Shown: positions 2,823 to 23,797 of the stretch, piece by piece
Numbering within the stretch: position 1 is the first letter of the stretch
How the letters are laid out: each line of letters opens with the position of its first letter
Source: a virus
Lineage: Duplodnaviria > Caudoviricetes
Reading direction: 5' to 3' (one strand)
IMG/VR virus record: IMGVR_UViG_3300008255_000468
Location: 1 to 24,114 of that record
Length of the DNA: 24,114 nucleotides
The notes under the pieces: model-generated
What the model was told of the DNA's origin: nothing
What the model saw: only the letters and a program-made list of their open reading frames with translations
Database searches by the model: none
Made by a program: the position numbers and the translations under genes

Positions 2823-2829
2823 TATTTAG
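2823..2829 (-). promoter_or_regulatory. T4-late-like promoter CTAAATA
   Basis: 5 nt before ATG 2817. Confidence 0.6.
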
Positions 2830-3275
2830 TAACCGTGCGATTTTGACCGTCTTGTTTTTTCTCTGTTGACTCGCACATCGCCGTTTAGGTTGTAGTTGCA
2901 TACGACAGCGGTGCCGTAGACGTGGGCATCGCCGCAGATGAGGACGTTATTGAAGACATGTGCATCGCCGTAGACGCGGGCTCTGCCAAAGACGCGGGCA
3001 TTGCCGTGGACGTGGGCTTTCTCGGCTACTATCGCATCGCCGTAAACGCGGGCTCTGCCAAAGACGCGGGCATCGTCGCATACTTCAGCATTGCCGTAGA
3101 CGCGGGCATCGTTATCTACCCAACAGTTTCCGTCTTGTGAAAGGTTCGTCTCGCTTGCAATGTATCCACCGAGCGATTGCTCGGGGACATACTGCAAATT
3201 TTGCAGTGCTCGGATGCGATAGAGTGTCTGATTGTCGATCTGGATTGTGTCGCTCTGGACTAGTTCGTATTTCAT
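2826..3275 (-). CDS. Phage hexapeptide-repeat (left-handed beta-helix-like) protein
   Basis: N-terminal LYRIRAL...GGYIASETNLSQDGNCWV followed by ARVYGN/ARVFGR/ARVYGD repeats; GAGGT RBS. Confidence 0.85.
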   Translation of the reverse strand: MKYELVQSDTIQIDNQTLYRIRALQNLQYVPEQSLGGYIASETNLSQDGNCWVDNDARVYGNAEVCDDARVFGRARVYGDAIVAEKAHVHGNARVFGRARVYGDAHVFNNVLICGDAHVYGTAVVCNYNLNGDVRVNREKTRRSKSHGY

Positions 3276-3294
3276 GTCGTTGTTACCTCAATTC

Positions 3295-3301
3295 TATTTA
3301 G
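3295..3301 (-). promoter_or_regulatory. T4-late-like promoter CTAAATA
   Basis: Just upstream of the RBS of 2826..3275. Confidence 0.6.
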
Positions 3302-3516
3302 TAACCGTGTGGTTTTGGCGAGCGTGGTTAGTTCCACACTATCCAAGACAATCATACAGACGCGATTCTTCGAGCCCACAAAACCGAGAACGGAAAGAAC
3401 TGAAAACAAAGGAGAAAAGATTCGCGGGCGATACGAAAGATGCCAAAAAAACGGGCTTATAAATCTGAGATTTATTTTTGTCTGACTATTACTGTGTCGC
3501 GATTGCTGGTGCGATA

Positions 3517-3861
3517 ATGAAACTTCGCGAGGAAATCGCGACAGTGGATCAACTACAGAGGTATTACTCAGTCCAAGAGATAGCAGAATCGTGGCAACTC
3601 AGTAAAGACAAGGTGCGGGAACTCTTCCGCAATGAGGACGGAGTTCTGCGCATCCCTTCAAGTAATGAAAAACGCGGGCAGCGTGCGTATGAAACGCTGC
3701 GCGTGCCCGCGTGTGTATTGGCGCGTGTGCAAGCTCGACTTAGTTCACCCGTTGCGGCGAAGGTGCATCCGATGGTGGAACGGATGAATGTTGCACGTGC
3801 AAAGCGTCGTTCGCCCAAGTGCGTCGCACCTGATCATGCAAGGCGTCCGTTCGTCGCTTGA
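3517..3861 (+). CDS. xis: Excisionase-like HTH protein
   Basis: YYSVQEIAESWQLSKDKVRELFRNEDGV...YETLRVP; converges on and overlaps the integrase; start uncertain (3478/3517/3544). Confidence 0.7.
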   Translation: MKLREEIATVDQLQRYYSVQEIAESWQLSKDKVRELFRNEDGVLRIPSSNEKRGQRAYETLRVPACVLARVQARLSSPVAAKVHPMVERMNVARAKRRSPKCVAPDHARRPFVA

Positions 3862-4936
3862 CCCACATAGCATAGTGTTTCTCTGTTGTACTCACCTTGG
3901 CGTGTCCTAGCAACCGTGCGACATCGCTGATAGGCGTGCCAGCGATCAGCAATTCAACCGCATAGGTATGTCGAAAATTGTGTGCGGTGCGTTCCTTGAG
4001 TCCAGCGAGATTCAGCAGTTTGCGAATGCGCGTGAACCACTTAGTAGCTCGCGTGTGTAATTCGCCTTCGCCAGACCAAAAGAAGTATTTCTCGGAGTCA
4101 TGCGGACACGCCATGAGTTTCGCTAACACCCAATCGGGAACTGGAACTGTGACATCAGACCCGGTTTTTTGCCGATACGTCATGATCTTGCCTTCGTTGA
4201 CATACACGTGAGACTTTTCGAGCTTCACCAGCGTGGAGCAATCGAGCCCGGTGTATCTCATGACGTGAACGAAGGCGTCCACTTGCTGCGCAATCGCTTG
4301 ACCCTTGCGCCCGTATTCGTCCGCGAAGTCTGGCAGCACGCGGAAAACGGCTTCCATTTCGGCTGGTTCAAATGGCTTCCGATCCGTTCGCACTTCTTTA
4401 ATCGTTGGCATGGCGTGTGACGGATTGCTCTTGATCAGTTCCGCATTCACACAGAACTTGAAAAACGATTTGATGGTGTCGCGCCGATTTCTGCGAGTCG
4501 AGTTTTCGTCACTCCAGCCAGACTGCCAAGTGATCAAATCTAGTGGCGTGATTTGCTCCATGTAGACGTGATTGCGTGGACTCGCTTCCATGAAGGTCTG
4601 GAGAGCCATCAGCAATTTTCGGTACTTCGTCTGAATGGGTCTTGTGATGTCACGCTTCGTCAGCATGAAGGCGTCTATCGCTTGCTTGATGGTGCATCGT
4701 TCTGGCGTGTCCTGGACTGTGTACGGCGTCTCAAGTTCGCGTGCGAGGATTGACGCCCGCGTCCAGTCCCGGACGCCTTCGCCCGTCTCTGGATCAATGA
4801 GACGCCTATGTCTGTACGTTCCAGACCCGTCGGTGCCTTCGAAGTACACCGGACACTTCACCTTGAGCGGACACACTTTCGTCTCTTTGCCGTGGTTGGT
4901 GCATGACTTCACATGCCTTCGATATAAGCGAATCAT
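3740..4936 (-). CDS. int: Tyrosine recombinase / phage integrase
   Basis: HNFRHTYA, LLGH and TTEKHY motifs; adjacent attP; extended -10 TGcTAGACT 6 nt before ATG 4936. Confidence 0.93.
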   Translation of the reverse strand: MIRLYRRHVKSCTNHGKETKVCPLKVKCPVYFEGTDGSGTYRHRRLIDPETGEGVRDWTRASILARELETPYTVQDTPERCTIKQAIDAFMLTKRDITRPIQTKYRKLLMALQTFMEASPRNHVYMEQITPLDLITWQSGWSDENSTRRNRRDTIKSFFKFCVNAELIKSNPSHAMPTIKEVRTDRKPFEPAEMEAVFRVLPDFADEYGRKGQAIAQQVDAFVHVMRYTGLDCSTLVKLEKSHVYVNEGKIMTYRQKTGSDVTVPVPDWVLAKLMACPHDSEKYFFWSGEGELHTRATKWFTRIRKLLNLAGLKERTAHNFRHTYAVELLIAGTPISDVARLLGHAKVSTTEKHYAMWVKRRTDALHDQVRRTWANDALHVQHSSVPPSDAPSPQRVN

Positions 4937-4956: not shown

Positions 4957-5152
4957 GCACCCACACTTGCACCCACACTTGGCGACTCGGAGGCTTATGT
5001 TGTTGATTTGATTGGGTTTAGAGGTTGGTGGGGGCGGCTGTGATGTTACAATTCGCTGGCGTTGAAAACACGTAACTTATTGATTTTGCAAGACGGCAAA
5101 AACGCCAGAAACGGTGAAATCGGCATGATTACCCACACCTGACCCACACTTG
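4957..5152. other. attP site: arm repeats, IHF site and tRNA-3'-like core
   Basis: GCACCCACACTT x2 (4957-4980); ACCCACACCTG/ACCCACACTTG (5131-5152); minus-strand CAGCCGCCCCCACCA (5026-5040); AATCAATAAGTTA (5073-5085, minus) matches IHF consensus WATCAANNNNTTR. Confidence 0.8.
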
Positions 5153-5795: not shown

Positions 5796-5829
5796 TATTT
5801 ATCGTTTTCGGAAAATGGAGTGGTAAATA
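5796..5829. promoter_or_regulatory. Divergent pair of TAAATA motifs
   Basis: Minus-strand 5796-5801 (5 nt before ATG 5790); plus-strand 5824-5829 upstream of the beta-barrel gene. Confidence 0.5.
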
Positions 5830-5898: not shown

Positions 5899-6399
5899 AT
5901 GAAACTCTTTACTCTTCTTTTTCTATTTGCAGCGACGGTCTTTGGACAACAAATCGCTGTGCTTGGTGGATACAACGACAACACCCGCGTGTCAGCGAAA
6001 GTCTATGCACCCGTCACCAGCCGCGTTTCCATCGGCACTCAATACAGATTCTCCAACCACGACGCTGCTGCCCTGGTATCGTTCGATGTCATTCGAGCAA
6101 GGAAACTAACAATCGCTGCTGAAGCTGGATACGGTCTTACACGTGAGATCGACACAGACATCCGCTGGCAGCTTGGGCGAATCCCTGTGTACGCTGGCAA
6201 TCGCTTGATATACGTTGACGCGGTTGTAGGTGCGGAACTGTACAAGCGTACACCATGGCTTGGTACTGCGATTGCTGGCGCTATCGTCTCATATCGATTG
6301 TCGAAACATGTTTCCATTCAGGCGAACTATCAGTTTCACGCAGTCAACCGACACGACAACAGACACGTGACGCAAGTCGGTGTCGCAATCGACTTCTAA
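5899..6399 (+). CDS. Small outer-membrane beta-barrel protein (Lom/Ail/OmpW-like architecture)
   Basis: Signal peptide MKLFTLLFLFAATVFG, alternating amphipathic strands, terminal QVGVAIDF with C-terminal Phe; GAGGT RBS. Confidence 0.75.
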   Translation: MKLFTLLFLFAATVFGQQIAVLGGYNDNTRVSAKVYAPVTSRVSIGTQYRFSNHDAAALVSFDVIRARKLTIAAEAGYGLTREIDTDIRWQLGRIPVYAGNRLIYVDAVVGAELYKRTPWLGTAIAGAIVSYRLSKHVSIQANYQFHAVNRHDNRHVTQVGVAIDF

Positions 6400-8918
6400 T
6401 GGTTAATCAATCCGTGTCCGCTGGAGTGTCCGAGAGCATTCAGCAGTGTTCTGTAATTCTCATTCAGTGCATTCAGTTTGGATTTGAGATCGTTGATAAG
6501 CGCTTGTTCTCCAGATCCATAACTTCCGCCCGCGTCGGCAACAGAGCACAGTGCTGGATCTGAGATCGTAGCAGCACGATTCGCGAGTACTTTGCTTCCA
6601 CCAATGTAGACACCCTGAGACGTTGAAGATAGTTTCACGTCACCAGTACCGCCGAACGTCGAACTTACGAGTACTTCGCCGAAGATCGTCAACGGTGACG
6701 CTGTAGACTTCAAAGTCATATTGCTAGCCAGCGTAATCGCGGTCGAAGAGTTAGACATCATTCCAATACTCGACGAACTTGAGTTCGCAAAGAAATTGAA
6801 CGTCGAAGAGAATCTGATGTTTACTTTGCTTGGAGAGATCTGTACTGGAGACGAAGCGAACGAAGTATGTCCAATGCCAATTCCAGATCCTCCATAAATC
6901 TGGATTGCACCCGACGTGATTTTCGTACCAGCAGAACCCACCACCATTTCGATTGCACCCGCCGATGTCACTCTGAATGGTGGCGTGCTGCCTGATGGTG
7001 CTCCCAGTTGGATTTCGCCACCATAGACGTAAATCCCACCAGAGGTAAGGCGAATATACCTCGTGAGATCGGTTATCTGAATGGCGCTTCCGTCAATGGA
7101 AATTCGATTGAAATTGTTCCTGAACGTGGCTGTGCTAGAAAATGATGCTTCACCAGCAGTCAGTTTCCCGACACTGACAGACAACATTTTCACGTCATTG
7201 ATAGTCGCGTCCATCAGCTTGGAACCGTCAACCGACAGCGTGTCGATTTTCGAACCAGCCAAAGAAACGATGTCGCTATTCGTGACGCTGAAAGAATTGA
7301 TCTGTGACTTCGTAATCGAAACAATTTTCGCGCCTGGAATCGTCGCGTCTTGTATATTTGATCCATGGATGGAAATGCTGCCCGCAGCGAACGTGCCCGT
7401 TACAGCGCCCGCATTGACAGTTAAGGGTCCCCCAGACGCCACCGTGCCATAGACCTTCCCGATGTCCAACGAGATAATCATATCGCTCGAAATACCACCG
7501 ATCAAGTTCCCGACGCTCATCTTGTTAACAGACACAGTCGGCACACGCCCGGTCTTTACCGTCGATTCGGTAACCTCTTGCCAAGTACCAGCTTGGTTTT
7601 GGAACCACTTATTCGACGTGGTGTTGTAGTAAAACGAGTCCAGCGGATGCAAAACACTCGGCAACGATGGCGAACTCGCGAAGTATGGAACATCGCGCAA
7701 GTGGTTCGCCAACTGCAAAAAGTCGATGGCACCACCAGCGATCATCGAACCAGTGATAGAGCCAGCACCCGGATTTGGCACGGAACGATCTGTTAGAGCG
7801 TCTTCCAGTTGCCGCCCGAGCTTGATCAATCGAGTCGCGTGATCTTGCACATAGTCGCCAAATGAGACCTCGTATTTGGTGTGACCCTCGGACTCGTTGT
7901 TCGACTTGACCCACGACATTGTAATGTCGCGAATCTGAAATGCTTGATCAATTCCATAGCTATCGGATTTGATGTTGATGATCTGACCACTGCGCAGACC
8001 GTCGAGCATGGTGCTGAAAGAGCCCGTGCGAACGGGTTCAAGGTGTTGCTGTAGAAGCGTCGCTGCGTACACATTGGCAAGCGGTTCGGTAACGATGTCT
8101 TTGTTCACGTATGCACGCGAGAGCACACCCAGGACAGCTTGCGACGCGGAGTCGTTGACAACGACGCGAATCGGTGTCTTGTCAATGAGATCTAAACCGC
8201 CGCGAACGATGACTTGATTCGCTTTCCGCGTCCAGTCTTCTTTGTATTTCAAATCGACAGCGAAAGAATCGATGTTATCAGGTGCGACGCAATCAATCGA
8301 GAATGGTGCATTCGCCAGCGTTGACGAAGTGAAGTGAACATTCTTTTCCGCGTCTATCCACCAGTCAGCGAAAATCATTTCTGCGAGCGTATCGAGTACT
8401 TTCTTCGCATCCCAATCATCGATATTGATGTAATCGAAAGTGTGAATGTTCTCGACAGTTGTCGCGTCAAAGTCTGTTCCCGCGAACACTGCCTGAATGA
8501 TCGCCTTATTCGTCGCTGTTGTGTACTCGCCATTGTGAATGATGTGGTCTAGCTGCGAAGTGTAATCGACACATGCAACAGCATAGTGAGTCAGAGTCGC
8601 ATTGATGACTTTATAATCGACATCGACAATATAGCCACCGAAGATCTTTTCGTCTGTGTCCGCGTCCTCGATAAGCACATTGATTAGATTCGAGACACCA
8701 ATGCCAGCGGAAGTGTCGCCAGCGTAGCGAGCGCCTTCAGTATCTTCGTCTGAAGCGTATGTGAATATCGTGTCGTATCTAGCTTCACCGGTCGGATTGA
8801 ACATCAAACAAAATGAAGCAGTGCTATTCTTTCCACTTATTGTGGTCTGAATACGTGTCTCTGACAAAGACACGTATTGAGTCACATCATTCCCGTTAAC
8901 TGTTATTCTGACTTTCAT
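6396..8918 (-). CDS. Tail tip / hub protein with C-terminal beta-rich spike or fibre region
   Basis: 840 aa directly after the tape measure; hub-like N-terminal ~370 aa, then IT..KI-type repeats and a Ser/Gly-rich beta region. Confidence 0.75.
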   Translation of the reverse strand: MKVRITVNGNDVTQYVSLSETRIQTTISGKNSTASFCLMFNPTGEARYDTIFTYASDEDTEGARYAGDTSAGIGVSNLINVLIEDADTDEKIFGGYIVDVDYKVINATLTHYAVACVDYTSQLDHIIHNGEYTTATNKAIIQAVFAGTDFDATTVENIHTFDYINIDDWDAKKVLDTLAEMIFADWWIDAEKNVHFTSSTLANAPFSIDCVAPDNIDSFAVDLKYKEDWTRKANQVIVRGGLDLIDKTPIRVVVNDSASQAVLGVLSRAYVNKDIVTEPLANVYAATLLQQHLEPVRTGSFSTMLDGLRSGQIINIKSDSYGIDQAFQIRDITMSWVKSNNESEGHTKYEVSFGDYVQDHATRLIKLGRQLEDALTDRSVPNPGAGSITGSMIAGGAIDFLQLANHLRDVPYFASSPSLPSVLHPLDSFYYNTTSNKWFQNQAGTWQEVTESTVKTGRVPTVSVNKMSVGNLIGGISSDMIISLDIGKVYGTVASGGPLTVNAGAVTGTFAAGSISIHGSNIQDATIPGAKIVSITKSQINSFSVTNSDIVSLAGSKIDTLSVDGSKLMDATINDVKMLSVSVGKLTAGEASFSSTATFRNNFNRISIDGSAIQITDLTRYIRLTSGGIYVYGGEIQLGAPSGSTPPFRVTSAGAIEMVVGSAGTKITSGAIQIYGGSGIGIGHTSFASSPVQISPSKVNIRFSSTFNFFANSSSSSIGMMSNSSTAITLASNMTLKSTASPLTIFGEVLVSSTFGGTGDVKLSSTSQGVYIGGSKVLANRAATISDPALCSVADAGGSYGSGEQALINDLKSKLNALNENYRTLLNALGHSSGHGLINH

Positions 8919-8921
8919 AAT

Positions 8922-11900
8922 TTACGCCATCGCAACTGCTTGCTCGATTTGTTTCATGACCGCTTCTGCAACCGCTTTCGGATCCGTGATTCCATTTACA
9001 TTCACGATTACTGATTGTAGTTTACTCTTCATATCAGCAATGTTGGTGTCAATTGCAGACAAGTGATTCAGTTTTCCCAAATACGTGTCGAATGATTGAA
9101 GACTCCAGTATGTGTTGTGACTGATTTCGTCGAGACGCTGACGCACACCACCATTCGTGCGGAGATCGTCGTGTATGTAGTAGAGAAAGTCGTGTGCTTC
9201 CCAGATCAACTCTTTTAGCGTGGGTTTGTTCTCGATAAAATCGACCTTCAGAAACCGCGTGTTTTCCTCGATTTGACCAAGCGCCTTAATCATCCGCTGT
9301 TGTTGAAACACTCCGAAGATATCAGCAATAGCGGAGACAACACCAGTCACTGCGGAGATAACGCCAGCCACACTGTCACCGATTGCGCCACCGATTATGC
9401 CAGCGGGATTATTACCACCACCACCACCACCACCCGATGGTGCGGATACTCCGAAAAATCCTGTTGTTATCGAAGTCAGCTTATCGACCAACGGATCGAG
9501 AGCTTTCTTGATGAGACCGTTCGGACCCGTGATGGCGTCCAGAAATGGTTGTGTCAGCGAATCCCAAACAGCCTTGCTAAGACCTTGCATCGCCTTAGTC
9601 ATGCGTTCGCCCCATGACTCGCTGGAACTACCAAACAGGCTGTCGTAAAGCGAGTCTGATAAATCTTGGACCGTTGTGGATATGCTCGTGAACACACTCG
9701 CGAATGGTGCTTGCAATTTCTGCGTACCATCGGGTCCTTTCAGTTTGCCTTCCAGATCCGAAATAGTCTGCAAAGTGTCTGCTTGTATTTGTCCACCAGC
9801 CCGTTGGGTTTCGGAAACTTGCAAACGCAAGTAAGCTAAGTATGCGGAATCGACTTCGAAATTCGTTCCACCACCAGCCGCGATTGTTTGATACGCAGCC
9901 TTCGCAACTGCGACAGTCTTTGAGAACTCGACATCTGAAACGATGTTCAGACTGCGAAATGCGTCTTCGATTTTAACTTGATCAGCGATAAAGTTCGGCA
10001 CTGTGACAGCGCGGAAATCACGCAGTTGCGCCTGATTATCTACAATCTTCGAAGTGTTCGAATCCCAAGCAGCACCCAACGAATTCATCGCAGCGATAAA
10101 TGGTGGAAGCGTAGCTGTTCTAACAGTATCGAGATCAGTCTTTAGATCTTTCGTCGCACGCGATTGACCTTGAATTTTGTCTGTGTAGAACTGCGCAACC
10201 TTGTCGGCACGCTCTTGTTCTTTCTTGAACTCTTCAGTCGCTTTCTTGGCTGCTTCCTTGTCGCTCTTCAAATTGCGAAGTTGGACGCCTTGATTTCTGA
10301 TTGTGCCAGTGGTTGTCTTGACTTCCGCTTCAGTTTTCTTTTGCTCAGTGCCAAGATCCTCAACAGCGACAGTATTCGCCTTCGCGTCTGTAGTCGCGTC
10401 TTTTGTATCAGTCTGGAAGATCTTCAGAACCTTGTTGATGTCTTCGAATGCTCGCTTCAATGACGATAGCGGAGACAGCCACAACAAGACCTTCGCTGTC
10501 GCTGTGACTACATCGCCGATAACGTCGCCAATGAAACCTAGGAAATTCATCAATTGTGGATTGCCTTGGATGAAAGCGTCTGTGATGTTGTTAACCTGCT
10601 GGACGAACAATACGATCTCGTTCCACAGACCCGTGACGACATCCCAAACATCGTTCACGATTCCACGAAATGTTTCGGATTCCTGGTATGCGAGCACGAG
10701 CGATGCAACGACTCCAGCGATTGCACCAGCCCAAATCACGAATGTTGCGGACACACCAAGCGCCAGCAGCCCGCTGATCGCAAGCGCAATGGGTCCAAGG
10801 ATCGCCAGCGTTGCACCAAACGCGAGAATCGCATCTTGCATTGGCTTGTCTAAGTTTGTGAACCAAGTCACAGCGCCTTCGAGCAAACCGATTCCTGCTT
10901 CCATCAACGGTTTGAACGCTTCGAGTTTCGGAATCAGAGCATCGCCGAACTTTATGGCAGCGTTCTCGACCGTTGTCTTGGTCTCGTTCATCATCTGCCG
11001 AAACCCACCCAACCCGGTCGTACTGCGCTCGAAGGCGATTCCGGCTGCCCCAGCGCTGTTTTCCATGTTGGTGAGCTTCGTGTCGTACTGATCCGACAGA
11101 GAGCCTGCAAGAGCGAGCATCAACGTTTGCGCTTCCGTGGACCCGACAAGCGCACCAAGGGGAATTTTCGACTTTTCAGCAGTCCCGACGATTGCGGAGA
11201 TAGCGCCGCTGAAGCCGAGTCCAGCGACAGCAGCAGCACCCGACTCGTACCCCATTTCGGCGAACGCCGCTTGCAAATTTTTGGACGGGTTCATTAAGGC
11301 TGCGTATGTCGCTGCTAGTTTTGTCGAGACTTCCGCCGTTGATCCGACAGCGCCTGACGCGGTGCTGAATGTCGCGAACAGTTCCTCTTGCGAAACACCT
11401 AGCGCGTTCGCCAGGGGAACCACACGTCCGACACTTCCAGCCAGTTCCTCGAAGCTCGTTTTACCGTCCACCACGGTCTGAAACATCTTGTCGCTGACGG
11501 ACCCTGCTTCAGACACGTCGAGGTTGTAGCCTTTGATGACAGCTTGAATAGCTGAGACAGCAGTCGATGTATCTGTCAGACCCGCACGCGCCGCTTCGTT
11601 TGCGATGCGAAGCAGATTCATCGATTGTTCGCTGTCTCCAAACGAACTGATGATTTCGTACATCGCGGCTGACAAAACCGTTGCGGATGTACCTGTTTCC
11701 GTGGACAAATCGAGAATCGCTTGCTTCAACTGAAGCACCCGTTCCTCGGGAATTTGCAACGTTCCGATGTTTGCCATCGCAACGTTAAACTCGTTTGCGA
11801 AATAGACAGCGGCACCACCAGCAGCGGTGATCGGAACTGTAAATGCGGTCGTTAACGTCGAACCAGCGGACGCAAGACTAGCAGACGCCGAAGACATTTT

Positions 11901-11981: not shown

Positions 11982-11987
11982 GGTTTA

Positions 11988-12733: not shown

Positions 12734-12740
12734 ACACATC

Positions 12741-12747
12741 TATTTAT
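12741..12747 (-). promoter_or_regulatory. T4-late-like promoter ATAAATA
   Basis: Directly after a terminator, 7 nt before ATG 12733. Confidence 0.6.
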
Positions 12748-12753
12748 GAAAAG

Positions 12754-12789: not shown

Positions 12790-12859
12790 ATAGCAGCAAC
12801 TATGTCTGTCTATTGAGGTAACCAGACGATTGTATTTAGCTCTTACGCGAAGGTGTCTA

Positions 12860-14432: not shown

Positions 14433-14982
14433 ATCTGGTAATAGTTTGCTGTGCAATCAATGCTGCCAGTGAAAACGGCAATGGTTTCGCGCCCGCTGCT
14501 TTGTCTGTGTACACTTCCCTGTTCTCGTACAAATGAGCAACGAGAAACTTAATCGCGTGCTTGGTGACATCGGGAACTAGATTCGCAGTCGCAACACCAG
14601 CGACGAAGGTCACCTTCGTCAAAATCGTTTTCTCTGGTGGCGAATCACGAATAACAACAACAGCGGGAGACACTGACAGTCGAGAAAAGTAATCCGTGGC
14701 TGGTACTTCTGTACCGTCTTCGCTGATGAACACGACAGAAGAAATGCTCGTGATCTTGAACCGTGGAATGTTAATCACTTTTTGCGCATTGTTCAGCGTG
14801 TATGAATGCGTCGATTGCATCACGACACGACCCGTTTCTTTCTCGAAGAAGCTAGTCGCGACGTGAATCAACGACTCGATATAGGTATCGTCAGCAACAA
14901 ATGCTGGCTCGATTACTAAGTGTTTCTTCGCTTCATCGGCGGTAATCGGAAGAACTGTTCTCGCTGTTAATAGTTCGATCAT
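14425..14982 (-). CDS. Head-tail connector (HK97 gp6 / SPP1 gp15-like)
   Basis: EAKKHLVI...DDTYIESLI...AIKFLVAHLYENRE motifs. Confidence 0.9.
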   Translation of the reverse strand: MIELLTARTVLPITADEAKKHLVIEPAFVADDTYIESLIHVATSFFEKETGRVVMQSTHSYTLNNAQKVINIPRFKITSISSVVFISEDGTEVPATDYFSRLSVSPAVVVIRDSPPEKTILTKVTFVAGVATANLVPDVTKHAIKFLVAHLYENREVYTDKAAGAKPLPFSLAALIAQQTITRYV

Positions 14983-14987
14983 GCAGA

Positions 14988-14994
14988 TATTTAG
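14988..14994 (-). promoter_or_regulatory. T4-late-like promoter CTAAATA
   Basis: Directly after the capsid terminator, 5 nt before ATG 14982. Confidence 0.65.
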
Positions 14995-15003
14995 TAAAAA
15001 ACA

Positions 15004-15035
15004 AAAGGCTGAAGTCGGTGAAGACTCCAGCCTTT
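15004..15035 (-). terminator. Intrinsic terminator after the major capsid gene
   Basis: AAAGGCTG-AGTC...GACT-CAGCCTTT stem followed by a T-run on the minus strand. Confidence 0.75.
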
Positions 15036-15055
15036 GTATTGTTATTGATTGTCGC

Positions 15056-16192: not shown

Positions 16193-16196
16193 TTTA

Positions 16197-16940
16197 CTAA
16201 ACCTCGTTTGTTTTGTAGTCGATCTCAAGTACTTGAAGCACTCGCAATAGATCATCAGGCGACATTCCTTCAACCGGCTTTTCTATTGGCGACTGAGTGT
16301 CAGCGGCTGCTGGTGTATCAGTTGCTTGCGTCTTGATTGACTCGACTATATTTAGTAGCTTGTCGATTTCCGCTTGTTCGGTATCGTTGGCGATACTTCC
16401 ACGCTCGATAACTGCTGCAACTGTATCGAGTGACACTTGCTCAACAGCAGCAAGCGAACGCACGAACGCGAATGTCTCCGCGTATGCGGGAACTGGTACT
16501 AGACTGATATCGTCGATCCACACTTTATGAAGCACATGAAGACGCGGCTGGTTTCGACGCTGAATCCATTCGTCTTTAATCACGTAAAAAGCGAACGACA
16601 TTTGTGTGATGTCGCCACGTTTGACAGACTCCAGCGTCTCGTTGCCAAGTGGCGTGTCTGGCATGTCAATCGCGAACTTCAGACCGCGTTCGTCTTGCTC
16701 GATTCGCAAAGTGTTGTTCTCGCGTCCAGCCACAAAGCGCCCGAGAACGAAGTTCTCGTTGTGATTGCGCAATGCGAGAATATCTTTCGATCTTTCCAAA
16801 TCGAAAGCGCCCGGTTTGATAACCTCGGTGAACTTATTGTTGATCAATCCAGATTCGACATTGAACAAAGCAGCATATCCGACGAGCGTTCTACCATCCG
16901 CCGATATTGTGGATTCTAAGGATCTTATTTCTTTTTTCAT
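16197..16940 (-). CDS. HK97-family prohead protease
   Basis: GYAALFN, LRNHNENFVLGR, DERGL, QMSFAF, ISLVPVPAY motifs. Confidence 0.95.
   Translation of the reverse strand: MKKEIRSLESTISADGRTLVGYAALFNVESGLINNKFTEVIKPGAFDLERSKDILALRNHNENFVLGRFVAGRENNTLRIEQDERGLKFAIDMPDTPLGNETLESVKRGDITQMSFAFYVIKDEWIQRRNQPRLHVLHKVWIDDISLVPVPAYAETFAFVRSLAAVEQVSLDTVAAVIERGSIANDTEQAEIDKLLNIVESIKTQATDTPAAADTQSPIEKPVEGMSPDDLLRVLQVLEIDYKTNEV
16349..16355 (-). promoter_or_regulatory. T4-late-like promoter CTAAATA inside the protease gene
   Basis: About 155 nt upstream of the capsid start. Confidence 0.45.
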
Positions 16941-18856
16941 TACGCGACTCCGATGCTACATTTGCATCCTTTATGCAATGGTGGGTGATACACACTTTTC
17001 TTTATTTCAAGCTCGCCTAAAATCGTTCGACCTTTCGGAACATACGATCTAGACTGAAGATCCATTTCACTTTTGTGAAGCGTCTGACAGAACTTACAAG
17101 CACCTGGATTTGTTCGCCAAGTGATCTGACTTGGTGTGTAGCCAGCAACTACATACGAATCGACTGAGTACTTTCCATTCGCTGCGACAGCGATGTCGGA
17201 TGCGTCACCGTCCAACAAATCGAATTCAGCGTCGAAGGCTTCACTGATTTTCGAAATCAAATCCTCTGGTTTCTCGACAACCACAGCAGCGACTTTGGTT
17301 AGTCGCTCTTCAGTCACTCGAATAGACAGTTCCTTACTGAATTCGTCGAGCCACGCATCGTTGTTAATATCTACCACCTGATTCAGTTCCCGTGCGATGT
17401 CTTCTGCGACACCTTTCACCAGTCCGCGAAGCGATGGCGTCAACTGTTTCTGTGTGAAGTCGCGATGATCCGTCTTGTAGAAGTCGATCAATTCGCGAAG
17501 TTGGTCTTCGCTCTGCGAGTGTCGATTGAGCAACTTCACCACGTCGATCTTTTCGCGACGCAGGATGCGCCCGAGAGCGTCAGCAATCGGCGATGCGGCT
17601 GTCGTGCTGATCGCCTGACGGAGTTCACCTTGCGCCCGCTGAACCGCTTGGATGCGTGGAACCGCTGGTGCTGGCGACAGCGAGCGAACACCTATGTCTG
17701 TTTCCGAATCGTCAGCGCTGGTGTTCAACGGGAATCGAAGTTTGTCGCCACCTGCGAGAGCGTTCAGATTCTCGCGTTCGCGGATTTCGTTCGCTGTCAT
17801 CCAGCCTGACTGGATCGCAGCGGAGTAATACTTCTGTCTCGCATCCAAATCGACACGCTTCATTGAGTCGATTAGAAATTCAAGGAAGAAATCCTTGCGC
17901 TCGAATGGTGTGAACAGTTGCGTATTGATTGCTTGCTCGATATTCACGAATCGCGGACGCAAGCTCTGCAAGAAGTTCAGACCTTCTTGCTCGATATTGC
18001 TGAAGGTCGAGCGAGACAAGTCACCGACCATATGCGAAGGGACACGAAACGCGGCTGCAATCGTTGTGCGCTGGAAGTTCTGTATCGAACTGATGTCCGC
18101 TTCTTTCAGATTCAACGAAGGCAATGGTTTGTACTCGATACCGAATGGCTCGACGAATAAGCGCCCGGTCTTTTTTGAACCACGGTGCATTTGTTCGATT
18201 TGTTCTCGGATGAATGCTTTGTCTTCTTCATCCACCTTTTCGGATGGACGCAGCGTTCCGCCCGGAAACATTCCGTTCCGGAAGAACTCGTGCGTGAAGG
18301 TTGCAGTCTCGTTGCTCGATTGAATAACGCGACGCATTTGCTCAAGCGGACTAATACCGTTGATTCCGTTATCTGTGTATTCCAGCACGTGTAGAACATG
18401 CGTGTCAGGATAGATCACGTCACGCGACTGAACAAACCACTTGCGACCGTCATGCACAACTGCTTTCAATGCGCCCGATGGAAATGGTCGGATGCTTGTT
18501 ACATCGCCCATTTCATTGCGATCAACGAAGGCGAAGAACTCGCCATGCGTGAGCAAGTTGTGTGTCAGCGTGTAGAAGAATTGATATGCGGTCTGGTAAC
18601 CATTCGGTTTGCTGTGAAGGATGTCGTACAACGGATGATCCTTCGCCCGTTGCTTTCCTGAGTCCAGCCGCTCGTAGACAATAGCGGAATTACTCGCGAC
18701 AGTCTCACACAAGATGCGGATGCAACTAAAGACAGTCTCATTTCGCGAAAGTGAATCGTCGTTCCAATTGACGATGTTGGATTCAGTTTCGATTAGCGTG
18801 TTGCTCGATTTCATCGATTTACTGATCCAATTGCGGACTGTTTTAAGTAGTTGCAT
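16940..18856 (-). CDS. HK97-family portal protein fused to a C-terminal MuF/SPP1 gp7-like domain
   Basis: Portal motifs HPLYDILHSKPN, FRVPSHMVG, STFSNIEQ, GWMTANEIRERENL end near residue 370; the extension ends WRT...CKFC...HPPLHKGCKC. Confidence 0.9.
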   Translation of the reverse strand: MQLLKTVRNWISKSMKSSNTLIETESNIVNWNDDSLSRNETVFSCIRILCETVASNSAIVYERLDSGKQRAKDHPLYDILHSKPNGYQTAYQFFYTLTHNLLTHGEFFAFVDRNEMGDVTSIRPFPSGALKAVVHDGRKWFVQSRDVIYPDTHVLHVLEYTDNGINGISPLEQMRRVIQSSNETATFTHEFFRNGMFPGGTLRPSEKVDEEDKAFIREQIEQMHRGSKKTGRLFVEPFGIEYKPLPSLNLKEADISSIQNFQRTTIAAAFRVPSHMVGDLSRSTFSNIEQEGLNFLQSLRPRFVNIEQAINTQLFTPFERKDFFLEFLIDSMKRVDLDARQKYYSAAIQSGWMTANEIRERENLNALAGGDKLRFPLNTSADDSETDIGVRSLSPAPAVPRIQAVQRAQGELRQAISTTAASPIADALGRILRREKIDVVKLLNRHSQSEDQLRELIDFYKTDHRDFTQKQLTPSLRGLVKGVAEDIARELNQVVDINNDAWLDEFSKELSIRVTEERLTKVAAVVVEKPEDLISKISEAFDAEFDLLDGDASDIAVAANGKYSVDSYVVAGYTPSQITWRTNPGACKFCQTLHKSEMDLQSRSYVPKGRTILGELEIKKSVYHPPLHKGCKCSIGVA

Positions 18857-18863
18857 ATAACAG

Positions 18864-18870
18864 TATTTAG
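18864..18870 (-). promoter_or_regulatory. T4-late-like promoter CTAAATA
   Basis: 7 nt before the portal ATG; overlaps the terL stop codon. Confidence 0.6.
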
Positions 18871-20465
18871 AAAATCATAAAGTCGCGAACTGATGACTTC
18901 TTGCGGCTGGTACTCTTCACCGACTGTTGTATGCGAGCCCGATTCGCTTTATCGTGCGCCATGATTGCCGCGATTGCTAAGTCGATTCGTTGCTTACTCA
19001 GTCGCTTCGATGGTCGGATGCGATCTGTTGAAGTCTCGCGAGTGATTGCTAGATTCTCGATACACCAGTTCAAGACTTTGTTGTCGAAGTGGCGTATTCG
19101 GTCTGTGAGAATTGCAGACTCGAAATCAGTTGTCGCTGTGTGCATCCAAGAATAGTCTTGTTTGAACTTCGAGACTGGGAACTTTCTTTCATTCAATTCG
19201 AGCATTAGCTGTGAAGCGAGAGCGATATCGAAAGCGATGTCCTTTATTTTGAAGTCTTTCGCGAGAATGTCAATGTAGTCACGAAGAACTCGTTGGTCAA
19301 CAATAGGACCCGGTGTCGCTATCAAGTGACCACTTTCGACCCACTGGCTATATGGTTGTTGATCTCGCTGTTCATGTTCTAGGAGATACGCCGCTGGTGT
19401 AAAGCCATATGGTATTAGATAAAAGAGATCGTCCTTCACCACACAACCGACGATTGCTGTTAAGTCTTTCGTCGCTGATAGGTCGATACCGACATACATG
19501 TCGAGCCCGTGAAGATCCTCGATTGTGATCTCTGTTTCCTTTAGTTTCAACCACTTGTTAATCGCGATGAATGATGTTTCAGCAGTGGTCCACAGATTCA
19601 GATAGAGTCTTTTGAACGCATTCTGTTTCTCGGGTCTGTCTTTTGCTTCTTGGCACAGTTGTTCGAATGTATCGAGAGCAATATGTTTTCCCAATGCTGG
19701 ATTTACTTTGTGCCAGACTTTCGGGTCTGTCCAATCGTCTGATGGATCTGCTTCGCGAATAAAAGCGAAGTATGAATCGTTCTCCTTTTTGCCAGCGAGT
19801 ATATCTCTCGCGTATTGCAATTCTCGGAACCAGATAGTGTTTGTATCAGTTCCCGCTGTGCTGATCATGAACAATAGAGGCTGCTGTCTAGCATGTTGGC
19901 TGGTGGTGAGAGCGTCGAAGGCTTCTTGCGCCCGTGCTTTTACCCAACCATGCAATTCGTCAAGAATGATTGCGCTTGGATTGAAACCATGCAGTTTCAA
20001 TCCTTCACTCGACACGATCATCAATCGCCCGTTGTTCGACGGTGATAGCAGTTCGTTTTGCTTTTCGATGATTCGTCTTGAAAGCCACGGTGATGCTTGA
20101 ATGTAGTCCTTCGCCATTTGCAGAGCGATGTTTGCCTGATCTTTATCGACCGCTGCAAGAATGATGAGCGGTCGTGGTTCTTCGTCTACCAACAGAAGGA
20201 ATAGGCAAAGCAGAATAACGAAGGTCGTTTTACCTTGCTTTCGTGGCAGAGCCAAAGCACAGCGTTTGAAGCGACGCAGACCATTCGCTTTCTTGCATCC
20301 GAGAACTTCGCGAAGGATGTCCCACTGATATTCGTCGAGTTCGAATCCAAGATCACCCGCCTTTTCTGTGTCGATATATCGAATCTTTTGCAAGAAATTG
20401 GCGAAGCGAATCAGCGGCTGTTCATCGAAGGTGTATTGATTCTTTACTTTTCCTTTCTTCGCCAT
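18867..20465 (-). CDS. terL: Terminase large subunit (HK97-type)
   Basis: Walker A PRKQGKTT, Walker B IILDELH, ISTAG, GIDLSATKDLTA, RIDLAIA. Confidence 0.96.
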   Translation of the reverse strand: MAKKGKVKNQYTFDEQPLIRFANFLQKIRYIDTEKAGDLGFELDEYQWDILREVLGCKKANGLRRFKRCALALPRKQGKTTFVILLCLFLLLVDEEPRPLIILAAVDKDQANIALQMAKDYIQASPWLSRRIIEKQNELLSPSNNGRLMIVSSEGLKLHGFNPSAIILDELHGWVKARAQEAFDALTTSQHARQQPLLFMISTAGTDTNTIWFRELQYARDILAGKKENDSYFAFIREADPSDDWTDPKVWHKVNPALGKHIALDTFEQLCQEAKDRPEKQNAFKRLYLNLWTTAETSFIAINKWLKLKETEITIEDLHGLDMYVGIDLSATKDLTAIVGCVVKDDLFYLIPYGFTPAAYLLEHEQRDQQPYSQWVESGHLIATPGPIVDQRVLRDYIDILAKDFKIKDIAFDIALASQLMLELNERKFPVSKFKQDYSWMHTATTDFESAILTDRIRHFDNKVLNWCIENLAITRETSTDRIRPSKRLSKQRIDLAIAAIMAHDKANRARIQQSVKSTSRKKSSVRDFMIF

Positions 20466-20884
20466 GGTGTTGCTGTCGTTTTGGTATTGTCGAGCGAGTC
20501 ATCCTCATGCTCTTCAGTCACATGTGCAATGACAGATCGAGAGCGCGGAGACAAACCTAGTTGTATACAGATCTTGTGTATCGTTGCCTGACAGTCTTTA
20601 ATAATGTTGAGCAACGGATTCTTGACTATCGTTCGTTGACCATCTACCACGAGTTCTTCTTTATTGAGAGCCACAGACGCGCGACGTTTCAGATCGAGGT
20701 TGAGCACTAGATCTTCGAGTAACAGTCGATCAACATTCTTGAGTAGGTTGCCTTCGTCTAGTAGATAGTAGACTTCGCCCCATACCTCCGATTGCTCTGG
20801 AGTGAAATAGTCGGGAATACTAGCTTCCAACTTTGGCAGTTCATCGGTGCGGACACGGGCTTGTGGTCCTGGCTTGACTTTCAT
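20444..20884 (-). CDS. terS: Terminase small subunit (P27-family)
   Basis: KNPLLNII...QLGLSPRSRS motif; directly upstream of TerL. Confidence 0.9.
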   Translation of the reverse strand: MKVKPGPQARVRTDELPKLEASIPDYFTPEQSEVWGEVYYLLDEGNLLKNVDRLLLEDLVLNLDLKRRASVALNKEELVVDGQRTIVKNPLLNIIKDCQATIHKICIQLGLSPRSRSVIAHVTEEHEDDSLDNTKTTATPWRRKEK

Positions 20885-20891
20885 ATACAGA

Positions 20892-20898
20892 TATTTAG
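20892..20898 (-). promoter_or_regulatory. T4-late-like promoter CTAAATA
   Basis: 7 nt before the terS ATG. Confidence 0.65.
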
Positions 20899-20989
20899 CT
20901 TTTTGCTTATTGACAGATCCTTTGAAGGATTATCAATAAGAGTTTTCGGTGACTAGTACTAAAATGGTAAGGACCCTAAATCCTGTCAG

Positions 20990-21070
20990 ATAGACATACG
21001 AGTCGCCAAGGGAAGGGCTTCGACCGCGAAAAACTCAGAACTTCGACCCACCCTACCCTTGCCAGCGAGA
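20990..21070 (-). other. Probable cos packaging region
   Basis: Intergenic between HNH and terS, as in HK97-like cos phages; G-rich GGGTAGGGTGGGTCGAAGTTCTGAG; exact nick sites not determinable. Confidence 0.45.
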
Positions 21071-21075
21071 AAATA

Positions 21076-21426
21076 CTATAAACCTTTGCGTGTGTAATTG
21101 ATAAAGTGACAGCGAGAGCAAAGACAAAGTACGTTTGATTTGGTGAATCGCTTCAACCACGCATCTTTTACTTTCTCGACGTGGTGGACTTCGGTCGCGA
21201 GTTGTTGATTGCACTCCTGACATATAGGTGATTCCGACAATCGCAATTCGCGAAACCGTTTCCATTCAGCGGAATTGTAGAACCGTTTCAAGATCGGGTC
21301 TTTCTTCGCTTCGAGGTTGCGCCAAGATGCGCGTCTCAAGATACGAGCATGTTCCCGACAATAGCCTTTGTCCTCGGACTGTTGATCACATCCTGCAATC
21401 GAGCACGGTGTTGAATATAGTTGCAT
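21076..21426 (-). CDS. Terminase-associated HNH endonuclease (HK97 gp74-like)
   Basis: FYNSAEWKRFR...PICQEC...EVHH...NVLCLCSRCH; start uncertain (21426 or 21471). Confidence 0.9.
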   Translation of the reverse strand: MQLYSTPCSIAGCDQQSEDKGYCREHARILRRASWRNLEAKKDPILKRFYNSAEWKRFRELRLSESPICQECNQQLATEVHHVEKVKDAWLKRFTKSNVLCLCSRCHFINYTRKGL

Positions 21427-21516: not shown

Positions 21517-21768
21517 CTATTTAGACGCCGTGAGAATTAGCGGCTGGAAATCGTCCAAGCATGTTTTGTTTCTCGCTGCAAGAAACGTCTGAAGATCCGT
21601 GATCAGTTTCACTTTGCGATATCGGATGTAGGACGGTGTTACTTTGTACTTCTTCTGCAATACATGTGACAGTTTGCTTTCGTCGAGAATGTCTTCGATC
21701 AATTCTCGATCAAGAGAATTGAACAGATCGATCTCTTCAATGACTTGCTCTTGTAGTGTCTTTCGCAT
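21517..21768 (-). CDS. Small helical, putative DNA-binding protein (sigma-region-4/RinA-like position)
   Basis: 83 aa upstream of HNH-terS; LSHVLQKKYKVTPSYIRYRKVKL is HTH-like; CTAGATA variant 5 nt before ATG. Confidence 0.45.
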   Translation of the reverse strand: MRKTLQEQVIEEIDLFNSLDRELIEDILDESKLSHVLQKKYKVTPSYIRYRKVKLITDLQTFLAARNKTCLDDFQPLILTASK

Positions 21769-21773
21769 ACAAG

Positions 21774-21802
21774 TATCTAGCTAGACGCGGAAAGCCTAAA
21801 TA
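21774..21802. promoter_or_regulatory. Divergent pair: minus-strand TAGATA variant and plus-strand CTAAATA
   Basis: 21774-21779 lies 5 nt before ATG 21768; 21796-21802 lies upstream of the fibre gene RBS. Confidence 0.55.
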
Positions 21803-21833
21803 CTGGATAGCTTCACACAATCGAGGTAGATAA

Positions 21834-23543
21834 ATGGCTTGGATGCTTCCACGAGTCGCGAAAGAACTTATTCGCGCATCACATATCAATACGCTTATCC
21901 AACAAATCCAGCAGTGGCAAGGCAACGTCGATGCAAACAGCAATCGCCTTATCAATATAGCCAATGCGATCAACAACGGTGATGCAATCAACAAAGGACT
22001 GCTAGACAGCGGGCTCGCAACGAAGGCAGCGTCGAGCCACGCGCATGCAATTGCTGATGTCACTTCGTTGCAAACAAGTCTCGATGGCAAAGCAAGCACC
22101 AGCCACAGCCACGCGATTGCTGACGTTACGAGCTTGCAGACTTCACTAGACGCGAAGGCAGCATCAACACACGGACACGTGATCAGCGACACGACGGGCT
22201 TGCAGACAGCACTCGATGGCAAGGCAGCATCAAGCCACACGCACGGGCTTGCTGATCTGACAGCGACGGGAACTAAAGACTCGACTACATTTCTCAGAGG
22301 CGACAACACCTGGGCAGTTCCCGCTGGTGGTGGTGGATCCGTGGAATGGGGAGACATCACGGGCACGCTGGCATCACAGACCGACCTTCAGACAGCGCTC
22401 AACGGGAAGGCGTCGAGCACACACAGTCACGCAATAAGCGATGTCACCAGTCTGCAGACCACGTTGGATGGCAAGGCTGCATCTAGTCACGGGCACGCCA
22501 TGGACCAAATCACTGGCTTGGAGTCAGCGCTTGGTGGCAAAGCAGCATCTACGCACAGTCACGCTATTGCGGACACCACTGGCTTGCAGACAGCACTGGA
22601 CGGGAAGGCAGCATCAAGCCACGGACACGTGATCAGCGACACAACGGGCTTGCAGACCACGCTTGATGGCAAGGCAGCGTCGAGCCACACGCACGGTCTG
22701 TCAGACCTGACAGCGACGGGCACCAAAGACTCGACAACCTTTCTGCGTGGCGACAACACTTGGGCAGTTCCCGCTGGTGGATCGAATTACATTGCGCCCG
22801 GTGCAATTGCAAGCAGACCAGCCGCCAATACCGTTGCGGCTGGATCTGTATATCTAGCCACAGACATACTAAACAAACAATGGATCAGCAACGGCACTGA
22901 TTGGATATCTGTCTATCACTCGCAGCCAGTGGTCGATCCTCCGGCTGCATCAGCATGGTCGCTGGTTTGGAATCATCCGTCGACAGCTACTACACTCACA
23001 GACCTTGGTGGTGGTGCTATCGAGCTAATAAGCGCTGTAGGCAGTGCTTCGCGCTATGGTGGATATGCTCGCATCGCTGTTCCAACAGCGACAGAGTGGT
23101 ATATCGAAGCAGACATCGATTTCCAAATGGCGTCGGGTGTCGTAACGAACTGGCTTTGCGGTCTCGGCTTCTTCACAGGAACCGATAGCTCTGATCTACA
23201 GGCGTGGTTGATAAATGTCTTTCCTGGCGCTAACAGGCAGCATGGCGTCGCTATTGCGAGAACGGACACAACTATCAATGACGCGCAAACAAACAGCACA
23301 TCGATCTACGGTGACTACTCATTACTCCCATTTTCGCGTACTCGATACAGAATCGGGCGCATCGGATCAAATAAAGTATTCGGTGTGTCGTTCAACGGAC
23401 AAACGTGGCTTGAGTACACAGCTGGATGGACAAGCACTTGGACACCGACCCATGTCGGTTTCGGTGTCCGGACTGGTGGTGGTGGATGGGAACGCGGGCG
23501 CGCGAACCTACATCATTGGCGAGAGATCATCGTAACAGCATAG
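21834..23543 (+). CDS. Fibre protein with HxH phage-tail repeats and a C-terminal globular (lectin-like) domain
   Basis: Nine KAASSHxH-type units of about 22 aa; TFLRGDNTW twice; aromatic beta-rich C-terminus; GAGGT RBS. Confidence 0.8.
   Translation: MAWMLPRVAKELIRASHINTLIQQIQQWQGNVDANSNRLINIANAINNGDAINKGLLDSGLATKAASSHAHAIADVTSLQTSLDGKASTSHSHAIADVTSLQTSLDAKAASTHGHVISDTTGLQTALDGKAASSHTHGLADLTATGTKDSTTFLRGDNTWAVPAGGGGSVEWGDITGTLASQTDLQTALNGKASSTHSHAISDVTSLQTTLDGKAASSHGHAMDQITGLESALGGKAASTHSHAIADTTGLQTALDGKAASSHGHVISDTTGLQTTLDGKAASSHTHGLSDLTATGTKDSTTFLRGDNTWAVPAGGSNYIAPGAIASRPAANTVAAGSVYLATDILNKQWISNGTDWISVYHSQPVVDPPAASAWSLVWNHPSTATTLTDLGGGAIELISAVGSASRYGGYARIAVPTATEWYIEADIDFQMASGVVTNWLCGLGFFTGTDSSDLQAWLINVFPGANRQHGVAIARTDTTINDAQTNSTSIYGDYSLLPFSRTRYRIGRIGSNKVFGVSFNGQTWLEYTAGWTSTWTPTHVGFGVRTGGGGWERGRANLHHWREIIVTA
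22023..22780 (+). repeat. 66-bp coding tandem repeats plus an internal duplication with 450-bp offset
   Basis: About 22154-22330 matches 22604-22780, mostly with third-position differences. Confidence 0.9.
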
Positions 23544-23551
23544 GTGGAATC

Positions 23552-23797
23552 ATGACGAAACAAGACTTAGAGCATATCAGTGAGAGAAAAGCACTACAAG
23601 CAGAGCTTGATCAATACAAGCAAGACCCGAACTTTATTCAGTTTCTTGATTTCATGCGGGTCTATCAATCAATGCCGGAGGCAATGACGGATAAAGAAGC
23701 AGATCGCTTTATTGATGAAGCAGTTGCGAAAGATCCGACACTGGCTGGTGTGGATGTTGTCGCAGAGAGACTGTCTCGGAAAACATTATCTAAATAA
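23552..23797 (+). CDS. Hypothetical protein, 81 aa, downstream of the fibre gene
   Basis: AGGTGG RBS before ATG 23552; followed by a terminator. Confidence 0.65.
   Translation: MTKQDLEHISERKALQAELDQYKQDPNFIQFLDFMRVYQSMPEAMTDKEADRFIDEAVAKDPTLAGVDVVAERLSRKTLSK

Follow-up and report, generated by a model that had tools for sequence, protein, structure and literature searches.

The window analysed here is the whole of IMG/VR record IMGVR_UViG_3300008255_000468 (positions 1-24,114; Caudoviricetes), a stretch of 24,114 nt. An independent assembly, L225, bridges both ends of the contig with 32 extra bases, which makes the element circular (about 24.15 kb), with the window contig as the whole of it; it was met in at least three assemblies, which differ by point changes. 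Scans of its 28 open reading frames (ORFs) against PHROG and Pfam recognised a complete siphovirus module of the HK97 type, a fibre, an integrase, two small helix-turn-helix (HTH) genes, a helicase and a winged-HTH (wHTH) protein. Primase, polymerase, repressor, sigma factor and endolysin were all not found by the same scans, and there are no tRNA, tmRNA or Rfam matches in the window. Our subject is the hexamer TAAATA (the box), which the initial annotation had read as a motif placed like a late promoter of phage T4 and often giving near-leaderless mRNAs. All 16 coordinates that it gave are exact; they follow with one TAGATA variant, and with mentions of two other box-bearing elements, the G003 provirus and a prophage of Paludibaculum fermentans T20B24.

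670..675, plus strand: TAAATA, in antisense to the opening codons of the wHTH gene; same layout in G003
2152..2157, plus strand: TAAATA, antisense to the helicase leader
2823..2828, minus strand: TAAATA, 5 nt before the ATG (2817) of an excisionase/AlpA-like HTH_17 gene
3295..3300, minus strand: TAAATA, 19 nt before the ATG (3275) of a beta-solenoid gene with a GAGGT ribosome-binding site (RBS); heads the HTH-helicase-wHTH block
5796..5801, minus strand: TAAATA, 5 nt before the ORF72 ATG (5790); divergent from 5824
5824..5829, plus strand: TAAATA, 69 nt before an outer-membrane beta-barrel gene
12741..12746, minus strand: TAAATA, 7 nt before the ATG (12733) of a putative tail chaperone, just past terminator 12754-12789
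12833..12838, minus strand: TAAATA, leading into a structured non-coding stretch of about 80 nt that ends in terminator 12754-12789 (fold z -6.95)
13307..13312, minus strand: TAAATA, 36 nt before the major tail protein ATG (13270), with an AGGAG RBS between
14988..14993, minus strand: TAAATA, 5 nt before the head-tail adaptor ATG (14982), just past terminator 15004-15035; same position in G003
16349..16354, minus strand: TAAATA within the protease gene and 156 nt upstream of the capsid ATG (16192)
18864..18869, minus strand: TAAATA, 7 nt before the portal ATG (18856); its TAA doubles as the stop of the terminase large subunit (TerL)
20892..20897, minus strand: TAAATA, 7 nt before the ATG (20884) of the terminase small subunit (TerS); same gene box-led in G003 and P. 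fermentans
21518..21523, minus strand: TAAATA where ORF83 ends, 91 nt upstream of the HNH ATG (21426); same junction box-led in G003 and P. fermentans
21774..21779, minus strand: TAGATA variant, 5 nt before the ORF83 ATG (21768); divergent from 21797
21797..21802, plus strand: TAAATA, 31 nt before the tail fibre ATG (21834), with a GAGGT RBS
23791..23796, plus strand: TAAATA sharing bases with the end of ORF81 and followed by terminator 23823-23854

Six copies end 5 to 7 nt before an ATG, as had been claimed (5 nt at 2817, 5790 and 14982; 7 nt at 12733, 18856 and 20884), and the TAGATA variant does lie 5 nt before its own. Other copies had been said to precede an RBS: this holds for the major tail, fibre and beta-helix genes (36, 31 and 19 nt). 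The capsid copy at 16349 is the weakest case; those before the HNH and outer-membrane genes (91 and 69 nt) are also distant. The two restarts that had been placed right after terminators, at 12741 and 14988, are where they were said to be. The box precedes all gene blocks of the window except the integrase (int) and excisionase (xis) genes, and no copy is found near the starts of xis, head closure and HNH. The label 'late' does not cover every copy: the box stands before virion genes, and it also heads the block of replication and HTH genes. The 3295 site is a 28-nt duplicate of the 2823 site.

Three other elements carry the box. G003, a 34-kb provirus with a related integrase and virion genes, has 15 TAAATA sites for 3.2 expected; its portal and capsid genes have a box 6 and 7 nt before their starts. 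A small ORF without family match also lies in G003 (L130 3103-3441, minus strand), 5 nt past a TAAATA and on the strand opposite the late genes. The genome of P. fermentans T20B24 contains a prophage of 29 kb, complete and flanked by two tmRNA-end repeats, with 11 sites, all sense, for 3.8 expected; in its accessible part, a published list of Bryobacteraceae proviruses includes one in P. fermentans P105 (PMC11924767). TerL, portal, protease and capsid proteins of these two elements are 25 to 36% identical to those of the window. The third element, in the Bryobacteraceae genome G265, is an unrelated 47-kb prophage at a tRNA-Leu (G265:C1 about 58943-106142), whose lambda-like head is unrelated to that of the window. 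It has 13 sense boxes before virion genes, with a modal spacer of 5 nt, and at their head its own gene for gp55 (L142 3152-2604; E 9e-44). The layout of the major tail box is the same in G003, P. fermentans, G265 and the window. Contig G265:C1 had been considered as a T4-like contig, which was rejected, as it is a prophage within host DNA. A third integrase relative, L109, has a terminase and a protease but two TAAATA sites and no such pattern, so that the integrase clade is not uniformly box-bearing.

Viral contigs were searched as well. A terminase scan covering 18 of 64 parts yielded, beside one contig of the same element, 79 distant loci (34 to 37%), none of which, judged by count alone, has the mostly C-led boxes of the window at its gene starts. 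Scans with a helicase alignment (one of them covering 3 of 64 parts) gave two same-element loci and 158 others without any further window gene, and single-protein scans with the helicase, the integrase, P0002 and P0242 found no close relative.

The raw count of TAAATA had been judged only modestly above chance, which the shuffled controls do not bear out: 16 copies compare with a mean of 4.89 (standard deviation 2.17, maximum 10), none of 100 shuffles reaches 16, and the enrichment is about threefold. An order-3 Markov model places TAAATA no higher than 19th among the window's hexamers. The positional bias, on which the initial annotation had mainly relied, stands. A box lies 4 to 8 nt upstream of 6 of 28 hand-curated starts (0.05 expected, P 1e-11), but because some of these starts had been chosen knowing the motif, an annotation-free test was run. 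In the window, 6 of the 16 sites are followed, at 5 to 7 nt, by an ATG that begins a frame of at least 60 codons, and in the four elements 18 of 55 are, against a background of 1.2%; at 42 of the 55, a long-frame ATG is found within 5 to 45 nt. TAAATA is also the top-ranked hexamer of the window for an ATG 4 to 8 nt downstream (6/16, P 7e-4, not significant after correction for 4096 words). Of 14 hexamers used as controls, ten have no leaderless placement at all; of the remaining four, three contain an ATG or share bases with the box.

Such figures could in principle reflect a translation signal, or an artefact of AT-rich spacers, and not a promoter. The box does include a TAA stop and is intergenic, and its TAA ends a long frame at 2 of the 16 window sites and at 6 of the 55 in the four elements. 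However, the box also stands 19 to 91 nt upstream of starts that have an RBS of their own, it follows directly on terminators, and antisense copies precede terminators; together with the control hexamers and with host genes, which lack the box, this makes the explanation highly improbable.

The host comparison, which had been proposed as a check, did not show an equal frequency of the motif before host genes, and the promoter reading is not refuted by it. CTAAATA-N4-8-ATG occurs four times in the window and four times in G003, whereas three host genomes of 10.1, 7.4 and 9 Mb contain 6, 3 and 7 occurrences, against 8, 19 and 11 in reversed controls. With a spacer of 5 to 7 nt, no more than 15 matches were obtained in any of 401 genomes, and by eye most counts did not exceed the control. 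A box is missing from all 190 long-frame starts examined in the host, although these are crude first-ATG starts that show no TANNNT peak either and make a weak test of leaderless use in the host. Host genes do not use the box. The pattern is real, conserved and not host-like; that it marks a helper-dependent virus is what the sequences suggest to us.

The 55 sites of the four elements give the consensus (C/A)TAAATA, with C or A at -1 in 51 and a commonest spacer of 5 nt. No -35 element is conserved: information does not exceed 0.17 bit from -35 to -16 relative to the box, and is 0.32 at -15. As had been remarked, the box does not fit the sigma70 hexamer TANNNT, its last base being A and not T. 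The integrase gene does have a normal box of the sigma70 type, TGcTAGACT at 4951-4943, 6 nt before its ATG, with TGnTAnnnT counterparts in many relatives; generic sigma70 promoter scans of the window stayed at chance. In the tmRNA clade of integrase genes (L081-L107), TGnTAnnnT mostly lies 5 to 15 nt before the start, which suggests that these int mRNAs are leaderless or near-leaderless.

According to the available portions of the sources, the T4 late promoter is TATAAATA at -13 to -6, with a variant CTAAATA in phage Aeh1 that starts at -12 and has its last base at -6 (PMC1524935); that of cyanomyoviruses is NATAAATA, and the late promoters of the T4 family are read by gp55 with gp33 and gp45 (PMC1524935, PMC2988020, PMC2984593). 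Given these positions and the modal spacer of 5 nt, the A of the ATG is the predicted +1. As far as these descriptions go, the window's boxes resemble T4-family late promoters in their TAAATA core, the preceding C or A, a distance of about 6 nt to the predicted start, the absence of a -35 and the presence of one per virion gene block. Sequence, geometry and missing -35 all match, and the reading as T4-like late promoters is supported to that extent. Unlike those of the T4 family, the boxes sit on a 24-kb integrative siphovirus of the HK97 type in which gp55, gp33 and gp45 were not found, they also head replication genes, and a third of the sites abut an ATG. The element itself is not a T4-like phage: it is a 24-kb circle with an HK97 virion and no gp55, and only its gp41 is of the T4 type.

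We think it quite probable that a factor of the gp55 family reads the boxes. The link is strengthened by G265, which belongs to the same host order and carries both box and gp55. Searches with phrog_234 and a local gp55 profile did not find gp55 in the window, in G003 or in the P. fermentans genome, the phrog_234 search being made without positive control (in other runs phrog_234 matched gp55 in G265 and T4) and both positives of the local profile being members of its training alignment. With phrog_234, gp55 was found in one of 401 genomes of the order, which is G265, and in none of 401 of the class. Sigma region 2 is found in no protein of the window or G003, while the host has 60 such proteins.

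The factor could then come in trans from a temperate element of the G265 type, which encodes its own gp55 and would work without a clamp. G265 offers the same host order, box and 5-nt modal spacer, and its gp55 ends without the acidic-hydrophobic tail that T4 and most of the other aligned sequences have, and which in T4 binds the clamp according to the part of PMC2988020 available. Its prophage has no tblastn match to T4 gp43, gp44, gp45, gp46, gp47 or gp62, and among the ORFs scanned, which leave aside those at the far end, there is no gp33 family, and primase, polymerase, helicase and lysin were not recognised. By this last count, however, G265 may itself be a satellite; moreover, gp55 is rare in the order and class, it was not found in the P. 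fermentans genome that bears a box prophage, and a temperate donor would leave the window's gp41 unexplained. We regard such a donor as unlikely.

A second possibility is that the element is transcriptionally autonomous, ORF83 or another unrecognised protein activating the boxes together with a host sigma factor, in the manner of RinA before terS. ORF83 (21517..21768, minus strand) is a small helical protein with a weak likeness to viral proteins that consist of sigma region 4 only. Its language-model features score 0.92 to clusters of small viral Sigma70_r4 proteins, with 160 shared features, under the 170 mark. G003 and P. fermentans also have a small ORF in this slot before HNH/terS, where G265 has gp55, and the many region-2 proteins of the host could provide the partner. 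However, ORF83 is 19 to 20% identical to its two positional counterparts and is not linked to them by tblastn; it has no Pfam or PHROG support, its predicted structure (pLDDT 62) gives no fold match of note, and a scan for the counterpart returned only G003 itself. Sigma region-4 domains read -35 DNA, whereas only the box at the -10 position is conserved here. TAAATA also lacks the invariant last T of group 1 and 2 sigma boxes, host genes do not use it, and ORF83 itself lies behind a box in the window, G003 and P. fermentans. Autonomy through ORF83 would still leave replication and lysis genes missing. We hold this to be a distinctly unlikely explanation.

Finally, the boxes might be relics in decayed descendants of G265-like phages that have lost gp55 and replication genes. 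In the P. fermentans prophage no replication gene was recognised and no match was obtained for the capsid gene, and G265 would exemplify the gp55-bearing state. Nevertheless, the window is an excised circle with an intact attP and open genes, met in several assemblies with point differences, and three elements as diverged as these all keep boxes while all lacking gp55. Decay appears improbable to us on these grounds.

The gene content of the replication region bears on the nature of the helper.

734..2131, minus strand: T4 gp41-type replicative helicase of 465 aa, with Walker A, Walker B and arginine finger intact
2131..2184, minus strand: 17-codon leader ORF with an AGGAG RBS, its stop overlapping the helicase GTG
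27..680, minus strand: 217-aa protein with a C-terminal winged HTH, beside the origin; likely initiator
24014..24114 and, across the circle junction, 1-19: likely origin, an AT-rich palindrome with GTCAAC repeats on either side

The best 40 phage matches of the helicase are all from T4-like phages; of 35 long loci surrounding its closest database relatives, 32 have further T4 core genes, and the nearest relative, P0002, sits on a 280-kb contig. Another gp41-type helicase was found in a tRNA-Met island of genome G375 (G375:C5 about 2089400-2095000; L321 14436-19760), beside a recombinase-like gene and an ORF resembling an insertion sequence, with no virion genes and no TAAATA. It is at 39% to P0008 and 30% to the window's helicase, and by sequence represents a second, independent capture. 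The captured gp41, the missing primase, polymerase and lysin, and the G375 island together lead us to favour a lytic T4-like helper. We therefore lean, at somewhat better than an even chance, towards the view that the element is an integrative satellite virus of Bryobacterales whose boxes are read by the gp55 of a helper, most likely a T4-like phage.

Under such helper control, only int, and perhaps xis, would be read by host sigma70, and the integrated element would be silent without a repressor, as the host cannot read its promoters. The gp55 of an incoming helper, on host core polymerase, would fire the 3295 and 2823 promoters (HTH gene, helicase, initiator) and, at the same time, each virion block separately. 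In about a third of the messages, the 5' end would coincide with the AUG or lie no more than 2 nt from it, and translation would be leaderless, abundant proteins keeping an RBS. The wHTH protein would open the iteron origin, and the captured gp41 would recruit helper primase and polymerase. The HNH/cos terminase would package the DNA into the element's own tailed particles, which would exit through helper lysis.

Antisense RNAs from 670 and 2152 would damp translation of the replication genes. These two boxes oppose the wHTH and helicase genes, with strong hairpins within 60 to 80 nt. The RNA predicted from 2152, of about 70 nt, would end in a hairpin and U-run at about 2199-2235 (fold z -4.2) and cover the RBS and start of the 17-codon leader ORF; in the predicted fold of the leader region when it is not translated, the helicase RBS is paired. 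That from 670, of about 55 nt, would end in a hairpin at about 699-732 (z -3.65; z -5.15 for the G003 counterpart). In G003, a sense box at 8960 and an antisense box at 8880 in the start of the wHTH gene adjoin a terminator and an iteron array, and the wHTH gene again lies beside that array. The 670 and 2152 boxes thus likely give antisense RNAs on the replication genes, with a putative function in their control, and the layout resembles the antisense RNA control of plasmid replication genes. The model of the wHTH protein has a pLDDT of 41. A 57-nt duplicate (95%) of the 3' part of its gene was noticed near the other side of the origin (23885-23941 versus 44-100); L225 lacks it and has a short, different insert there. 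Two box-led non-coding units, 12745-12827 (minus strand) and 23802-23862 (plus strand), end in closely similar hairpins (12754-12789 and 23823-23854) and are possible small RNAs.

Several observations weigh against a lytic T4-like helper. None was found, and no T4-like phage is tied to Bryobacterales; Tunturi 5, the one acidobacterial jumbo isolate tried as candidate, gave no match to gp55 or gp41 queries, has 5 boxes in 309 kb, and was rejected. The branch that leads to the window's helicase is long (2.0 changes per column), which makes its capture an old one, and a host primase may have become its partner; the elements of G003, P. fermentans and G265 have no gp41 helicase. Host enzymes could serve for the missing replication functions, and ORF83 may be the element's own activator. 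On supercoiled DNA, T4 gp55 by itself supports basal transcription, according to the accessible text of PMC2988020; with a temperate gp55 lacking a clamp in G265, this means that transcription does not depend on a lytic T4-like helper. In addition, leaderless placement is in little or no excess in T4, phiM12, Cr30, DLP6 and S-SSM7 (16 versus 13, 1 versus 2, 2 versus 7, 2 versus 1 and 8 versus 9), and does not, therefore, come from the classical T4 model; one of five uncultured T4-like records, G730 (133 kb, the record of L208), has 13 TAAATA-N5-7-ATG against 2 in the control.

Satellites with their own virion proteins are described in the part of PMC13587820 available: MiniFlayer, Aci01-2-Phanie, Mulchroom, Ando and the cf-PICIs. 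Like these, the window has an integrase and its own capsid and terminase, lysis and full replication genes were not found in it, and helper dependence is proposed. Unlike Ando, Mulchroom and the cf-PICIs, which that text presents as tail-less and tail-borrowing, it encodes head, connector, tail tube, tape measure, terminator and fibre; what it borrows, apparently, is a sigma factor and a replisome, not tails. With PLE (of ICP1) and PICMI, as far as the accessible descriptions go, it shares a chromosomal location, a lytic-phage trigger (proposed here) and an HTH excisionase of the PF12728 type, as in the PICMI model. Those elements use helper capsids and tails, however, whereas the window has a full virion module, and the fis site and primase of PICMI (int-alpA-primase at fis) are absent from it, a tmRNA-type att being present instead. 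In the portions of the PLE and PICMI literature available, no T4-type promoter or gp55 was found.

The promoters of satellite P4 are switched on by Ogr, the late transcription factor of P2. The window would likewise place satellite promoters under the late factor of a helper, and G265, with its own gp55, would parallel the mimic Delta of P4. In contrast, Ogr and Delta are activators for host sigma70, P4 borrows a whole virion, and its helper P2 is temperate. The window also resembles HK97, lambda and RinA-type temperate phages in the order and families of its head and tail genes, in HNH before terS, and in int-xis at a tRNA-like site. Lambda-like phages have one late operon under Q. The window differs in having many promoters, and the repressor, replication and lysis genes that such temperate phages carry were not found in it as a full set, repressor and lysis genes being unrecognised altogether. 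RinA-type phages have a single late operon under RinA, according to the part of PMC3152322 available.

Our literature search, which left subscription journals largely outside its coverage, found no description of satellites or temperate phages whose genes are expressed from promoters of the gp55 type. We give an even chance to the broader proposal of a new class of 'sigma-gated' satellite viruses: integrated and repressor-less, with a complete head and tail of their own and gp55 promoters, for which the late programme of the helper would be sensor, switch and clock. Some would have captured helper core genes (gp41; the gp55 of G265 without clamp tail), and antisense RNAs from the same promoters would tune replication. 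If this is true, such a parasite needs no repressor and has promoters invisible to its host; satellites that resemble ordinary prophages could be told by their sequence, having TAAATA before virion genes but lacking gp55; T4-like phages of Bryobacterales or Acidobacteria would be there to discover; and gp55 would drive transcription without a sliding clamp in temperate phages. The gp55 of G265 is a natural test of clamp-independent late transcription and bears on the long-standing question of its coupling to replication. A complete box-bearing prophage in cultured P. fermentans makes the reading directly testable.

The remaining features of the element are as follows.

6396..21426, minus strand: complete HK97-type siphovirus module, by protein family scans, with HNH, TerS, TerL, portal, protease, capsid, adaptor, closure, neck, terminator, major tail, two chaperone-sized ORFs, tape measure and an 840-aa tail protein
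21834..23543, plus strand: tail fibre with PTR repeats, by protein family scans
5899-6399, plus strand: outer-membrane beta-barrel gene with signal peptide (PF13505, E 2e-4, under the cut-off)
3740..4936, minus strand: tyrosine integrase of a Bryobacterales clade inserting at the tmRNA 3' end
3517..3861, plus strand: excisionase-like gene, convergent on int, common to most integrase relatives, without TAAATA upstream
2817-2503, minus strand: excisionase/AlpA-like HTH_17 gene of the PF12728 type
5026..5037, minus strand: attP-like core, 11/12 identical to the tmRNA 3' end of relatives

Among the integrase relatives, a tmRNA was called at 22 of 25 loci scanned, and it lies directly upstream of int in all 17 aligned. 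The attP of the window is intact by sequence, and its arm repeats are unlike those of the relatives. Via this integrase clade, the host is likely a member of the Bryobacterales (Acidobacteria). The beta-barrel gene, which is under a TAAATA box, possibly encodes a superinfection-exclusion or Lom-like moron. ORF120 resembles XhlA-like ORFs of relatives. A palindrome at 3446-3476, between the divergent xis and beta-solenoid genes, has ATAAATC on both strands and is possibly an operator or a variant promoter pair. A long hairpin lies at 21430-21490, between the 21518 box and the HNH start.

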